From Candidatus Parcubacteria bacterium (GTDB lineage Bacteria > Patescibacteriota > Minisyncoccia > Phycocordibacterales > UBA918): a DNA stretch of 64,000 bases. A program made the position numbers and the translations under genes. Shown here piece by piece: positions 459 through 43,494 of the stretch (positions are counted from its first letter, which is position 1; each line of letters starts with the position of its first letter). Location: contig JBJOPW010000003.1 of NCBI GenBank assembly GCA_046050355.1, positions 1-64,000 on the forward strand, written 5' to 3'. Under the pieces are notes generated by a model that worked only from the letters and a program-made list of their open reading frames with translations, made no database searches and was not told the DNA's origin.

Positions 459-504
459 CTATATAAAATCTTAATGCGCTTTATGGCGCATTTTGATTTT
501 AATA

Positions 505-638
505 GTGACCGGGAGCAAGCAAACTGCTTTGCTTGCGAGCGGGACTTGAAAGCCAGAATATGTCGCTCTGCGACTATGAGGCGGGGTCGCGGAAATTTCT
601 GTAAGAAATTATCTGTGACCAAGTCCCATCCCCGGCAC
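505..638 (+). repeat. tRNA-3'-associated structured element (type I core) after tRNA-Leu(TAA)
   Basis: Inverted tRNA 3' copy (505-514 + 540-550) split by hairpin 515-536; core 551-620; direct copy 620-638 (17/19). Confidence 0.75.
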
Positions 639-647
639 AAAAATAAA

Positions 648-671
648 ACTACTTCATTTAAATGAAGTAGT
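648..671. repeat. 24-bp perfect palindrome ACTACTTCATTTAAATGAAGTAGT, copy 1
   Basis: Identical to 1785-1808; lies between convergent tRNA units. Confidence 0.85.
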
Positions 672-687
672 TTTATTTTTGTATTTA

Positions 688-821
688 GTGCCTCCTCAAG
701 GGCTCGACCGTTACACGGTCAGTACACCTTGTGGCTATATTCTCCTGTCGTCGAATCTAGCTCACATGGTTTTCTCGCCACGCAACGCTTTTCTAATCGA
801 AAAGCTACGTCTTGAGGGGGC
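688..821 (-). repeat. tRNA-3'-associated structured element (type II core) after tRNA-Lys
   Basis: Inverted copy 811-821 plus degenerate 772-779 split by hairpin 780-810; direct copy 688-707 (19/20 to 858-877). Confidence 0.75.
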
Positions 822-858
822 GCAATAATAAAACGCACAGGAGTGCGTTTTATTATTG

Positions 859-932
859 TGCCCCCTCAAGGGCTCGAACCTTGGACCGTCTCCTTAAGAG
901 GGAGCTGCTCTACCAACTGAGCTAAGAGGGCA
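859..932 (-). tRNA. tRNA-Lys(CTT)
   Basis: D-arm GCTC-AGTTGGTA-GAGC; anticodon loop CTCTTAA; T-arm CAAGG-TTCGAGC-CCTTG; acceptor stem has one extra nt. Confidence 0.9.
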
Positions 933-1043
933 TCTGTTATTTATTTGTGGCGAGAGTATACAAGTTTTTCTTCACAAAGGCAAGCGATTGGTAAGCCCCG
1001 TCTGAGTATGCTACACTCGTAATCACATAAAAGTAAGCAGTGT

Positions 1044-1125
1044 GCCCAGGTGGCGAAATTGGTAGACGCACTTGCCTTAGGAGCAAGCGAGGCGACTCAT
1101 GGAGGTTCAAGTCCTCTCCTGGGCA
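1044..1125 (+). tRNA. tRNA-Leu(TAG)
   Basis: Acceptor GCCCAGG/CCTGGGC; anticodon arm CTTGC-CTTAGGA-GCAAG; variable arm. Confidence 0.95.
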
Positions 1126-1157
1126 CACTGTTTGGTTTAAGATGTACGAGAAGGGTT

Positions 1158-1299
1158 ACAAAACACTAAAGAGTAGTGATGTTTTCTGTGAGGACTTGAA
1201 GAGGTTCTGGTATATCGCACGGAACGTTAGTGAGTATGATACGAAACCTGTACCGAACATGTAATATTCAAGTCCTCACTTCCGCACACTGTGTGGTTT
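1158..1299 (+). repeat. tRNA-3'-associated structured element (type II core) after tRNA-Leu(TAG)
   Basis: Inverted GAGGACTTGAA 1190-1200; motif TGTACCGAACATGTAATATTC; direct TTCAAGTCCTC...GCACACTGT.TGGTTT 1267-1299. Confidence 0.7.
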
Positions 1300-21680: not shown

Positions 21681-22937
21681 ATGGAACAGATTAAAACAGA
21701 CGTTGAGTCATTCGCCCGCATTCGTGTTGTGGGTGTTGGTGGTTCAGGCAACAACGCCGTGAACTACATGGTCGGCGCCAAAGTTAAAGGTGTTGAATTT
21801 ATCGCAATCAATAGTGATGCCCAAGATCTCCATCACTCACTGGCGAAACGTAAGATCCATGTCGGCAAGAATCTCACTCGTGGTCTTGGTGCTGGCGGTA
21901 ACCCAGACATGGGCCGACGTGCCGCTGAAGAAACACGCGAAGAAATTGCCAATGCCATCAAGGGTTCAGATATGATCTTTGTCACCTGTGGTATGGGAGG
22001 AGGAACCGGTACCGGTGCCGCTCCAGTCGTGGCGAAGATTGCTCGTGAGAGTGGTGCGCTCACCGTGGGTGTCGTCACGAAGCCCTTCCTCTTTGAAGGG
22101 CAGGAACGAATGCGCCTCGCTCTCCAAGGCATCGAGGAATTGAAAAAAGAAGTCGACGCACTCATCACCATTCCAAACGACCGCCTCCTTGCCATTGTTG
22201 ACAAAGAGACTACTGTCAAAAGCGCCTTTGAGCAGTGCGACAATGTCCTCAAGCAAGCCGTTGAAGGTATCTCTGACCTTATCACTATGCCTGGTATCAT
22301 TAACGTCGACTTCGCTGATATTCGTAGCGTCATGGAGAACGCCGGTTCAGCCCTCATGGGTGTCGGCGTCTCAGCTGGCGAAAAGCGCGCTGAGGAAGCC
22401 GCCCGCGCCGCTATCAACTCACCACTCCTTGAAGTATCAATCACCGGGGCGAAGGGTGTCCTCTTTGCGATTGCCGGTGGTGACGACCTTGGTATGCTCG
22501 AAATCCAGGACTCAGCACGAGTGATTACCGAATCAATTGATCCACACGCCAAGGTTATCTTTGGTGCGATCAAGGACGACAAACTCAAAAAGAACGAGGT
22601 GAAGGTGACGGTAATTGCGACCGGCTTCCCTGAAGAATCAAGTGGACACCACAGCGCACCAATTGCTCGTCGTGCCCCCATAGCTGAACCATCACCAATT
22701 ATGGCCGAAACCGAGGAGCCAGTAGCTGAACCAGTTCGTGGCCGTATCTTCAATTCACTCACGAACCCACGCCGCCAAGAAGTCGACGAAGCACCAGCAC
22801 CAAAGGTAGACATGATGCCAGAGCCAAAGCCTGAACTCCCTCGCCGTGAACCCAAGCCAGTCGATCCCGTCGACGAAGACGATGAGGACGATTGGGGCGC
22901 CGTGCCGGCCTTCTTGCGTCGTTCAAAACTTAAATAA
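21681..22937 (+). CDS. ftsZ: Cell division protein FtsZ
   Basis: [16 protein letters not shown]-terminal VPAFLRR. Confidence 0.99.
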
Positions 22938-22949
22938 AGTTTTGACGAG

Positions 22950-23280
22950 CAAGGGCCGGCGCGGCGCGGCGGACCGATGTGAGTCGCCCCTTCCTAGGGC
23001 GACGAAGCAGGCCGCCGGGGTCGGAAGTACTTAGATTTTTATGAACGTAGTGAAATAAAAAGCTTAGTAACTTCTGACCTGTTCCTGCATTTCTCCGAAG
23101 GAGCCGAACCAGCAAGCCGCAGCGATACGAACCGCTCCTTCCTAGAGCGGTGAGGCAGCGAGCCGGGTGAGAAATGGGACGGGACCCATTTCGCAAGACC
23201 TTGCCAGCTATCTTTTGAGTGAAAGCGAAAAAGTAGCGACAAGGTGTACTGAACCTGTAAGGTTCGACGGCATTCTCATA
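22950..23280 (+). ncRNA. Tandem type I + type II structured cores in the ftsZ 3' region
   Basis: GGGGTCGG...CTGACC (23017-23079) resembles the Arg/Phe/Leu elements; 23234-23267 is 29/34 identical to the Lys element with compensatory changes. Confidence 0.6.
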
Positions 23281-23342
23281 ATTTAATTTCAAAACCCGAT
23301 TCATGACAAACCCCGTACTCTTGAGTACGGGGTTTTGTTTCC

Positions 23343-23579
23343 CTACAACTTCTTCACAATCGTCTCCAAGAGCATCGTCGTCTCCTCATTAGACCGCTTC
23401 CCACCACACTCCTTGAGCGATAGCAACAGATACTCCTTCACACAGGCATCAAGCGCACCCTTGGCAGCCAAGAATTGCGGCACTGCATTCGTGCATGATG
23501 GCTGGCAGGTCTCGAGGTCAGTGCGGATTTTTTGCAGCTGCCCTTCAACCCGCTTCAGTCGGTTGACGATTGGTTTCAT
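23343..23579 (-). CDS. CsoR/RcnR-family repressor
   Basis: NRLKRVEGQL, C29, Q..AAKGAL, C58. Confidence 0.9.
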   Translation of the reverse strand: MKPIVNRLKRVEGQLQKIRTDLETCQPSCTNAVPQFLAAKGALDACVKEYLLLSLKECGGKRSNEETTMLLETIVKKL

Positions 23580-40714: not shown

Positions 40715-41002
40715 CAAACATGTTCAGTAAACACTGCCCAACTCGGATTGTTCCGGCCCTAAAGGGAACCCCGGAACAGTCTTTCGAGCCCGCCCCCAAG
40801 CTACAAATAGCAACGACCATGAAACATGCGTTTCGTACAAACGGGCTCGACCCAGAATCGCGGTTATTTATTTCACTGCGTTCATAAACAGACTCGCGTT
40901 CTTGGTCGGCTCCTCCTCGTTTTGCTCGCCCCAGCTCACAAAACATCGTCCGGAGCTTCGAGCCCGCCCCGGACGACATACTCATGTCGTCCTCCCAAGC
41001 AC
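40715..41002 (-). repeat. tRNA-3'-associated structured elements (two units) after tRNA-Phe
   Basis: Inverted copy 40957-41002 split by hairpin 40971-40992; partial direct copy 40842-40850; second perfect 19-nt inverted copy 40783-40801. Confidence 0.75.
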
Positions 41003-41039
41003 ATATGAAAAAACTCCCAACTAGGAGTTTTTTCATATG

Positions 41040-43239: not shown

Positions 43240-43289
43240 CACAAACGTAAAAGAAAAGCACTCTTTATCTAAAGAGTGCTTTTCTTTTA

Positions 43290-43433
43290 GTAAGCAATCA
43301 GTATTGCTTACGTACACTTGTGTGAGACGGAACGATGTTTTCGCTATTCCTAATGCCAAAACGAGTGAGTCGGGGTCGAGAACACTTAGTAGTTTAGAAG
43401 CGTAGCGAACTAATATACTTAGTGATTCGTGAC
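43290..43433 (+). repeat. Type I structured element after tRNA-Arg (arms not recognisable)
   Basis: GTAAGCAA/TTGCTTAC hairpin; ACGATGTTTT..AAAACGAG; GGGGTCGAGAA...TTCGTGAC. Confidence 0.7.
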
Positions 43434-43494
43434 TATTGTTAAACAACAAAACCTTTCTGTTAACAGAAAGGTTTTGTTTATGGTTGCTCAAAAC

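Follow-up and report, generated by a model that had tools for sequence, protein, structure and literature searches.

Structured elements with arms matching the adjacent tRNA recur downstream of tRNA genes in a Parcubacteria genome and across its order

The stretch analysed here (the window) comprises the first 64,000 nucleotides of contig JBJOPW010000003.1 from a Candidatus Parcubacteria bacterium of the order Phycocordibacterales (C3:1-64000 in our numbering), whose genome (G000, here the host genome) measures 0.94 Mb in 17 contigs and carries 42 tRNAs and one transfer-messenger RNA (tmRNA) according to ARAGORN. Between 459 and 1300 three structured elements lie behind tRNA-Leu(TAA), tRNA-Lys(CTT) and tRNA-Leu(TAG). 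In its full form such an element is about 150 nt in size, and the order is tRNA, a terminator-like module (T1), INV-acc, a hairpin (hp1), INV-T, a structured core, DIR and a second terminator (T2). INV denotes an antisense copy and DIR a direct copy of the last ~20 nt of the tRNA, from T54 to the discriminator (N73); INV-acc is the antisense of the acceptor 3' strand, with the discriminator, and INV-T that of the T loop and the T-stem 3' strand. The cores are described by two covariance models, R1 for type II (built from 28 copies of the host genome) and R2 for type I (13 copies). The features of the region are the following.

375-458, + strand: tRNA-Leu(TAA); its last 20 nt (T54-N73) are the apparent template of the element 1 arms
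460-504, + strand: T1 of element 1, a palindromic, bidirectional terminator-like module (terminator-like on both strands at 473-492)
505-514, + strand: INV-acc of element 1, antisense to the acceptor 3' strand and discriminator; it extends the T1 palindrome
515-536, + strand: hp1 of element 1, a hairpin dividing the antisense arm
537-550, + strand: INV-T of element 1, antisense to the T loop and the T-stem 3' strand
551-618, + strand: type I core of element 1 (model R2)
619-638, + strand: DIR of element 1, 17/20 to the tRNA-Leu(TAA) 3' end
638-681, no strand assigned: T2, a terminator-like hairpin between the convergent elements 1 and 2
688-707, - strand: DIR of element 2, 19/20 to the tRNA-Lys(CTT) 3' end
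708-784, - strand: type II core of element 2 (R1 hit 705-795), with a long hairpin P2, GTACTG and a hairpin hp3 with a TGTAA loop
785-810, - strand: hp1 of element 2
811-823, - strand: contiguous antisense arm of element 2
824-857, - strand: T1 palindrome of element 2
859-931, - strand: tRNA-Lys(CTT)
1044-1125, + strand: tRNA-Leu(TAG)
1188-1300, + strand: element 3, a short form with an antisense T arm only
1188-1200, + strand: INV-T of element 3
1201-1267, + strand: divergent type II core of element 3 (weak R1 hit 1177-1270)
1268-1287, + strand: DIR of element 3, 16/20
1288-1300, + strand: copy of the 13-nt tRNA trailer in element 3, 12/13 bases

An earlier note, made from the letters alone, had described this layout behind the three tRNAs, and all three layouts are present; the direct copies that it reported are likewise found at each of them, with the counts listed above. 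T2 scores as a terminator and T1 does so on either strand, and the segments from INV through the core to DIR fold far better than shuffled sequences, with z-scores of -7.5, -6.5 and -2.8 for elements 1, 2 and 3.

The association with tRNAs goes well beyond chance in the host genome. Scored within 400 nt downstream on the tRNA's own strand, a core motif follows 26 of the 42 tRNAs. The corresponding counts are 3 for the opposite strand and 1 for the upstream side, and of 2000 windows placed at random 19 contain one. A DIR of the tRNA's own 3' end (at least 15/20, within 420 nt downstream) was found for 16 of the 42 and for 0/42 in the upstream controls, and 10 of these 16 copies sit at +141 to +161. 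The arms are also specific: a 13-mer of each tRNA made up of the T-stem 3' strand, acceptor 3' strand and discriminator reaches at least 11/13 in the region that follows this tRNA in 15/42 cases, compared with 11 of 1722 pairings of a tRNA with a foreign flank, several of which involve neighbouring or sister tRNAs, and the best upstream match is 10/13. Because contigs from four public sequencing runs span the 459-1300 region and the layout recurs in dozens of other genomes, the arm copies are not artefacts of assembly, a possibility that the earlier note had raised. The part at 430-649 is present with 8 differences in two runs from other sample types; joints in the run contigs are ambiguous, probably owing to paralogous copies at 85% likeness.

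The non-Watson-Crick positions of the tRNA stems reveal which strand the antisense arm follows. At such positions INV is the complement of the 3' strand 33 times, matches the tRNA 5' strand once and fits neither 10 times; in the acceptor stems alone the 3'-strand complement is found in 9/10 cases, including an A opposite U70 in tRNA-Ala, and at the U5.G68 pair of tRNA-Lys(CTT) it is again the 3' strand to which the antisense arm of element 2 is complementary. Since INV follows the complement of the 3' strand, it is not a leftover of the tRNA 5' half, and the count of 33 versus 1 rules out that candidate origin. A single long palindrome is made up of the tRNA end, T1 and INV-acc, and in it INV runs on into the complement of the trailer. 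The discriminator is the last base of DIR; in some elements a repeat of the trailer or of the terminator follows it. As judged from these alignments, both arms are nucleic-acid-templated Watson-Crick copies of the tRNA 3' strand.

The two arms track the tRNA independently of each other. Among 20 elements there are just 4 positions at which INV and DIR are in agreement but depart from the tRNA, while the tRNA agrees with INV against DIR at 23 and with DIR against INV at 27; an INV:DIR helix kept by compensatory change is therefore not supported (4 versus 50 positions). INV pairs slightly better with the tRNA end than with DIR, the Watson-Crick positions numbering 287/320 and 268/320. The elements behind tRNA-Leu(TAA) and tRNA-Leu(CAA) are instructive in this respect, as their T1 modules are alike at 43/44 positions and their cores at 66/68, whereas the bodies of the two tRNAs have diverged much further. 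Each INV suits its own tRNA, and the DIRs, alike at 18/20 (the DIR of element 1 being nearer to this sister copy than to its own tRNA), resemble the 3' end of the Leu(CAA) tRNA of a congener. The reverse is seen at tRNA-Ser(ACT), where DIR is perfect and INV-T is off. The independent change in the Leu pair indicates that arms and cores have separate histories, and the sequences suggest that INV can be renewed where DIR is a fossil. This pair, together with the loci found across the order, bears out the earlier view that the arms are specific to each tRNA and the cores common to many loci.

Covariation is strong in both core types. In 55 sequences from relatives 96.9% of the R1 cells are paired, compared with 61% after column shuffles and at most 50.5% for slid pairings, and 19/19 pairs have double changes; for R2 (37 sequences) the values are 97.3%, 76.9%, at most 41.3% and 19/24, although all these figures overstate the significance of pairing because the alignments are model-fitted and the sequences related. 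A MAFFT alignment of type II copies from the host genome already has double changes at 19/19 pairs. Non-canonical pairs are distributed unevenly between the strands, with G.T or T.G in 31 cells and A.C or C.A in 3 cells of R1, and one R2 pair is G.U in 32/36 sequences. This bias fits an RNA made in the direction of the tRNA, and single-stranded DNA of that strand also fits. The sense strand is predicted to fold more stably in 21 of 33 copies of the host genome, a modest asymmetry. Loop motifs are conserved as well, namely GAG...CGAA at hp1 and the P2 tip and C-UGUAA-G in hp3. The motif TGARC-N2-3-AGYGAA, which is the tip of the P2 hairpin, was further seen to recur right after tRNA or DIR ends in several lineages (C5:47560-47600 in the host genome; L061, L075, L079 and L086 among the relatives' loci). 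The cores have no Rfam family: at the gathering threshold Rfam 15 recovers only the 8 tRNAs of the whole window, a permissive search of 200-1400 and 22900-23420 returned chance-level matches only, mostly to microRNA models, and the tRNA-like families match nothing besides the tRNAs themselves.

The three-element region is a small part of a family that is spread through the genome and the order. R1 hits 39 places in the host genome. In a sample of 101 genomes of the order, one per genus with the host genome included, it matches 61, with 1-40 hits each, and R2 matches 82, compared with one match for R1 among the 149 genomes of the phylum sample that lie outside the order. A BLAST search with element 1 found matches in 28 of 41 relatives (the host genome counted). 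Locus-level comparisons in relatives rest on about 200 fetched loci, and among these a tRNA stands beside the match in 9/9 element 1 loci, with arms that fit that tRNA: Leu(CAA) 19/20, Val(GAC) 19/20, Ala(TGC) 20/20 and 17/20, Trp 18/20 and Arg(TCG) 18/20. The linkage to tRNAs extends to other families of the order, where loci were picked by model score only, one per genome. For R1 (29 loci) the unit lies downstream on the same strand for 20/29 tRNAs, 12 of which have a DIR of at least 14/18, and for R2 a tRNA precedes the core in 23/29, with a DIR of at least 13/17 for 11/26 such tRNAs; DIR is often perfect in these families (18/18 or 17/17). A 24-mer covering hp1 (514-537) is identical in several genera of the order and occurs in 2/401 genomes of the phylum sample, a conservation that is unusually strict for a hairpin.

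Occupancy varies between relatives, and copies duplicate and get lost. The filled and empty sites that the earlier note had hoped to compare both exist at orthologous tRNA-Leu(TAA) loci of the genus, where 7 are filled, 8 are empty and one is cut by a contig end; filled sites carry type I, II or III cores, and empty ones a terminator only. The sites behind tRNA-Cys, Val(GAC) and Trp are empty in the host genome and filled in relatives. Two identical tandem units follow tRNA-Cys at L018 and tRNA-Leu(TAG) at L024, both in relatives, while tRNA-Ser(ACT) is followed by three successive elements with different cores, each with arms for Ser(ACT). The repeat can be extended by a 22-nt trailer (L079) or to 66 nt including the terminator (L023); these and the tandem pairs are young events. 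Some DIRs belong to another tRNA, as at L024 of a relative and on contig C5 of the host genome, where the DIR behind tRNA-Leu(CAG) equals the Leu(TAG) end (13/13); recombination between elements at different tRNA loci would yield such mismatches. The order and orientation of the Cys/Leu(TAA)/Lys(CTT)/Leu(TAG) cluster differ in almost every genome of the genus (L017-L033), and inversions mediated by the elements are a possible source of this variation.

A role for both arms is suggested by predicted folds. In minimum-energy folds of the segments from tRNA to INV and from tRNA to DIR, the last 20 nt of the tRNA lie on INV in 10/12 cases, with 18-20 nt paired and the native acceptor at 0/7 pairs. 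In folds of the full transcript, DIR pairs with the 5' acceptor strand of the tRNA (5-7/7 pairs in 10/12), in three cases with the T-stem 5' strand too, and forcing the native acceptor costs 3-17 kcal/mol where this swap is predicted. The earlier note had suggested a switch in cis, in which the antisense copy sequesters the 3' half of the pre-tRNA and the direct copy releases it; the folds agree with the sequestration, but DIR is predicted to take the place opposite the 5' acceptor strand and not to release anything. The predicted strand swap thus gives a role to each arm, since INV would remove the original 3' strand and DIR would rebuild the tRNA shape.

We propose, with a probability of roughly 35%, that the elements are RNA modules of conserved structure which become joined to tRNA transcripts through their templated arms and an exchange of strands, and that they evolve as copies are born and decay at the repeated tRNA ends. 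The elements would lie in the read-through zone just behind tRNA genes, with T1 acting as a leaky bidirectional terminator, and a full copy would consist of T1, INV, one or more structured modules (type I, II, III and so on) and DIR. Most transcripts would end at T1 and yield normal pre-tRNA. On read-through, INV would zip onto the 3' strand of the tRNA and prolong the T1 hairpin, and DIR would move in where that strand had been, facing the 5' acceptor strand and at times the T-stem strand as well. The resulting RNA would have the shape of a tRNA and end like one at its 3' side, with the module as a large insertion in its T loop. Such a natural tRNA scaffold could be trimmed and stabilised by RNase P, RNase Z and CCA-adding enzymes. 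Copies would be born when the tRNA 3' end is duplicated; recombination between the duplicated ends would amplify or remove them, and with age they would decay. This proposal builds on the observed sequence relations, tRNA linkage, conserved structure, strand bias and predicted folds, and supposes in addition read-through, a swap in vivo, processing and some benefit. In its most far-reaching form, which we put forward as a tentative idea, the element writes both strands of the 3' end of its host tRNA into its own ends and is grafted onto that tRNA by three-strand exchange, being either a self-installing scaffold for structured RNAs or a target-templated, programmable mobile element of RNA or DNA that has no enzyme of its own.

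Several observations weigh against the scaffold proposal. DIR is not well maintained: in 58 elements, 44 of its 65 substitutions in stems disrupt pairing with the tRNA 5' strand, and there is no clear sign of selection for keeping that pairing; the 21 that keep pairing exceed the 10.7 expected under uniform substitution, an excess that transition bias could explain. Some elements are armless (Arg(CCT), Arg(GCG)), the same cores occur elsewhere without tRNA arms, and some DIRs belong to another tRNA. T1 resembles a good terminator, and a look for RNA sequencing runs containing the stretch found none. The folds are nearest-neighbour predictions that leave out tRNA tertiary structure, modifications and co-transcriptional folding. 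Finally, the coexistence of filled and empty orthologous sites and these other features resemble the birth and decay of selfish insertions at least as much as a maintained function.

A non-autonomous mobile element resembling a miniature inverted-repeat transposable element (MITE) or a short interspersed element (SINE) is almost as likely as the scaffold proposal, and the two are not exclusive. Here, a tentative account would have the element target the T loop of tRNAs with the help of a host enzyme, with DIR as the target duplication, INV-T and the 5' strand of hp3 as T-loop guides, the fold serving an RNA or single-stranded DNA intermediate, and the arms decaying after insertion. The identical tandem copies, the three Ser(ACT) elements with differing cores and their own arms, the occupied and vacant orthologous sites and the arm decay all agree with mobility, as do units nested in the hairpin loops of other units, truncated copies, and intragenomic copies that are 92% alike compared with 74% for the orthologue of a congener. 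The duplications themselves vary in length, with a fixed inner edge at T54-C56 and an outer end at the discriminator, at +13, at +22 or beyond the whole terminator (66 nt). Yet a target duplication leaves the tRNA-specific INV unexplained, two unrelated cores would need one mechanism, and like architectures that follow a given tRNA (Glu(TTC), Ser(TGA)) in families far apart suggest long vertical residence. Nor does any of the enzymes compared track the elements, and no co-occurring HUH enzyme, for which the earlier note had suggested looking, was found. RAYT-like genes and R1 each occur in 61 of the 101 order genomes and overlap in 37, with 36.8 expected, so there is no association, and IS200 TnpA is present in only 4/101. 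Besides one IS200 TnpA, the host genome has three RAYT-like Y1 genes (215-237 aa, below the NCBIfam cut-off; C2:111287-111994, C1:5850-6263 and C1:69074-69499), a group with up to 12 copies per order genome, and these are flanked by hairpins different from the tRNA elements; GC-rich palindromes unrelated to the elements precede one of them (C2:111100-111300). IS110 recombinase (PF01548) and TnpB (PF07282) gave no match in the host genome. Its single reverse transcriptase (349 aa, C11:360-2393) is that of a diversity-generating retroelement (DGR), because bAvd adjoins it; the same DGR core region also codes for a protein with a tRNA_anti-like domain.

The remaining explanations appear unlikely to different degrees. 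A device acting in cis on tRNA expression, in which INV traps the 3' half of read-through pre-tRNA for quality control or decay or as a regulated switch, would make the long perfect duplex a possible RNase III site and let the modules sense a protein or ligand. We regard it as unlikely, although INV pairs better with the tRNA 3' end than with DIR, a single palindrome joins the tRNA end to T1 and INV (10/12 folds have 18-20 of the 20 nt paired), INV has followed the tRNA in the Leu pair where DIR has not, and the loop motifs are conserved. Such a device has no need for DIR, tandem arrays, armless copies and units far from tRNAs are left unexplained, 16/42 tRNAs of the host genome have no core motif, and we know of no ligand or protein. 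A somewhat smaller chance falls to a passive by-product of DNA metabolism, by which template switching at fold-backs or quasi-palindromes would generate INV, gene conversion between short repeats or unequal exchange would generate and renew DIR, and the modules would be common 3'-end repeats that happen to lie there. The exactness of INV as complement of the 3' strand, down to trailer bases contiguous with T1, the independent tracking of the tRNA by each arm and the occurrence of non-tRNA units at gene 3' ends as well would be expected from it. On the other hand, every tRNA of the host genome with an antisense match of at least 15/20 has cores, INV never being seen without a module, hp1 breaks the palindrome while INV-T still matches, and the enrichment at tRNAs and the fixed orientation need a reason. 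Quite improbable, finally, are miniature remnants or cis-mobilisable derivatives of tyrosine integrase elements of the P4 type, with DIR as attR. Tandem arrays and a direct repeat that begins in the T loop and reaches the 3' end of the tRNA are the classic att pattern, and the host genome does encode a P4-like integrase (C4:33549-34760), 10 kb from the nearest tRNA, as one of two tyrosine recombinases, neither of which adjoins an element-bearing tRNA. But the elements, at 100-300 nt, are integrase-less, more than 20 tRNAs are occupied in this 0.94-Mb genome with a single P4-like integrase, INV would have no role, and the strand-specific folded cores would be unexplained.

Known classes of element fare no better, in agreement with the earlier note, which recognised no described family that fits: there is no Rfam match, and our literature search, which took in the main texts of two 2026 preprints on intergenic features, found no description of such elements. 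MITEs do not fit, as copies whose cores are nearly identical have different arms, which match the adjacent tRNA instead of being the element's own inverted repeats, and the target duplication has no fixed length (17-22 nt, sometimes 13, 22 or about 46 nt longer). Repetitive extragenic palindromes (REP) or REPINs mobilised by RAYT were rejected on the chance-level co-occurrence, palindrome-associated transposable elements derived from IS200/IS605 on the rarity of TnpA (Y1) in the order, and elements with IS110 bridge RNA or TnpB omega-RNA on the lack of either gene in the host genome. Genomic islands and cis-mobilisable elements share the direct repeat of the tRNA 3' end beside the element, but there is no integrase in or beside it, nor one per att specificity. 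A degenerate tRNA or tRNA-derived SINE is excluded, since INV does not derive from a 5' half and neither ARAGORN nor the Rfam tRNA model calls the elements. In a tRNA-primed retroelement the antisense arm should not continue into the complement of the genomic trailer in place of CCA, as it does here, and the only reverse transcriptase is that of the DGR. The compensatory changes and the strand bias are those of a structured non-coding RNA in general.

Partial likenesses to known systems are nevertheless apparent. Correia/NEMIS, the Rickettsia palindromic elements, BOX and REP/REPIN are MITE-like structured repeats of bacteria; like the tRNA elements they are about 100-300 nt long, multi-copy, intergenic, modular and strongly folded when transcribed, may stand in tandem or inside one another, and are found in some relatives and missing from others. 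Unlike them, the tRNA elements have terminal repeats that copy the neighbouring tRNA, one sense and one antisense, a fixed orientation to the tRNA, an RNA-like strand bias and no association with RAYT or a transposase. Integrase att sites share the direct repeat from T loop to tRNA 3' end, tandem accretion and a distal copy that may represent a 3' end of older or foreign type, whereas the elements are about 150 nt long, have no integrase of their own, include an antisense copy and use more than 20 tRNAs per genome. In tRNA-like scaffolds (the tmRNA domain, viral 3' ends, mascRNA and engineered ones), foreign RNA is closed by a helix of the acceptor/T type that could recruit tRNA-processing enzymes, as could be the case here, but the scaffold would in our elements be borrowed from the upstream tRNA via strand exchange. 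Integron attC sites and the attP of CTX phage also have two inverted arms around a variable structured spacer, rebuild the duplex of a target site and form arrays of one orientation; the arms of the elements, in contrast, vary per target, their strand bias fits RNA as well as single-stranded DNA, and no integron integrase turned up in the host genome, though none was searched for. T-box leaders, lastly, are multi-copy RNAs with a conserved core and a short part specific to one tRNA, but the elements lie downstream of the tRNA gene and not upstream of a regulated gene, do not match the T-box of Rfam, and would pair with 20 nt of the tRNA 3' strand and not with the anticodon and NCCA.

Further copies lie elsewhere in the window.

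40739-41038, - strand: two elements behind tRNA-Phe
first element, - strand: T1 41003-41038, INV-acc 40994-41002, hp1 40971-40993, INV-T 40957-40970, cut DIR 40842-40851
second, truncated element, - strand: contiguous antisense arm 40783-40804, type III core 40739-40782
43249-43434, + strand: armless element behind tRNA-Arg(CCT), with T1 43249-43288, hp1 43290-43311 and a type I core (R2 hit 43324-43434)
22966-23266, + strand: cores away from any tRNA and without tRNA arms, type I (R2 22966-23079) and type II (R1 23173-23266)

The earlier suggestion that the architecture returns at tRNA-Phe, where it has arms and a cut DIR, and without arms at tRNA-Arg(CCT) is thereby borne out. Cores off tRNAs in the host genome are closed by other helices, nested in hp1 loops or arranged in tandem, often between convergent genes. 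Similar arrays and nested units were seen at C7:17000-17800, C11:22250-22560, C5:62130-62360, C7:41990-42240, C6:12800-12980, C17:10300-10470, C8:17340-17510, C1:96680-96970 and C2:9000-9160. Their contexts vary, many being between convergent genes, and the idea that they are the 5' leader of one gene family was rejected. At C6:37435-37465 (+) the sequence AAGGAGG lies within the hp3 of a type II unit, 12 nt ahead of the start codon of a gene whose product starts like RNase HII, and this unit could mask the ribosome-binding site. A tRNA missed by ARAGORN at C4:68060-68400 (-; locus L135:440-800) has a group I intron (RF00028, 79 bits) in its anticodon loop, appears from its exons to be tRNA-Asn(GUU), and is followed by elements with a 23-nt antisense arm; it gave no support to the idea, taken from the CUGUAAG loops, that hp3 copies an anticodon arm. 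At C2:124517-125094 a cluster of tRNA-Ser(CGA), Pro(GGG) and Asn(GTT) encodes CCA, which is absent from most tRNAs of this genome, duplicates Pro(GGG) and may be foreign DNA; a type II unit follows it. The tmRNA (C14:21563-21989), which also has a tRNA-like 3' end, is followed by a plain terminator and no element.

The elements thus represent two RNA motif families that are new to Rfam and abundant throughout an order of little-studied bacteria with tiny genomes, and their design is unusual in that the neighbouring tRNA supplies the sequence of both ends, one in sense and one in antisense. In annotation, a DIR copy may wrongly be read as a fragment of a tRNA or as an att site. The elements also flag tRNA loci as places where these genomes are especially prone to duplication and rearrangement. 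Should the elements prove mobile, they would represent a transposase-less system with target-derived ends, which would bear on the tolerance of repeats in small genomes and on programmable insertion. If the strand swap is true, engineered tRNA scaffolds would have an equivalent in nature, and stable RNAs could arise from tRNA operons by a new route.

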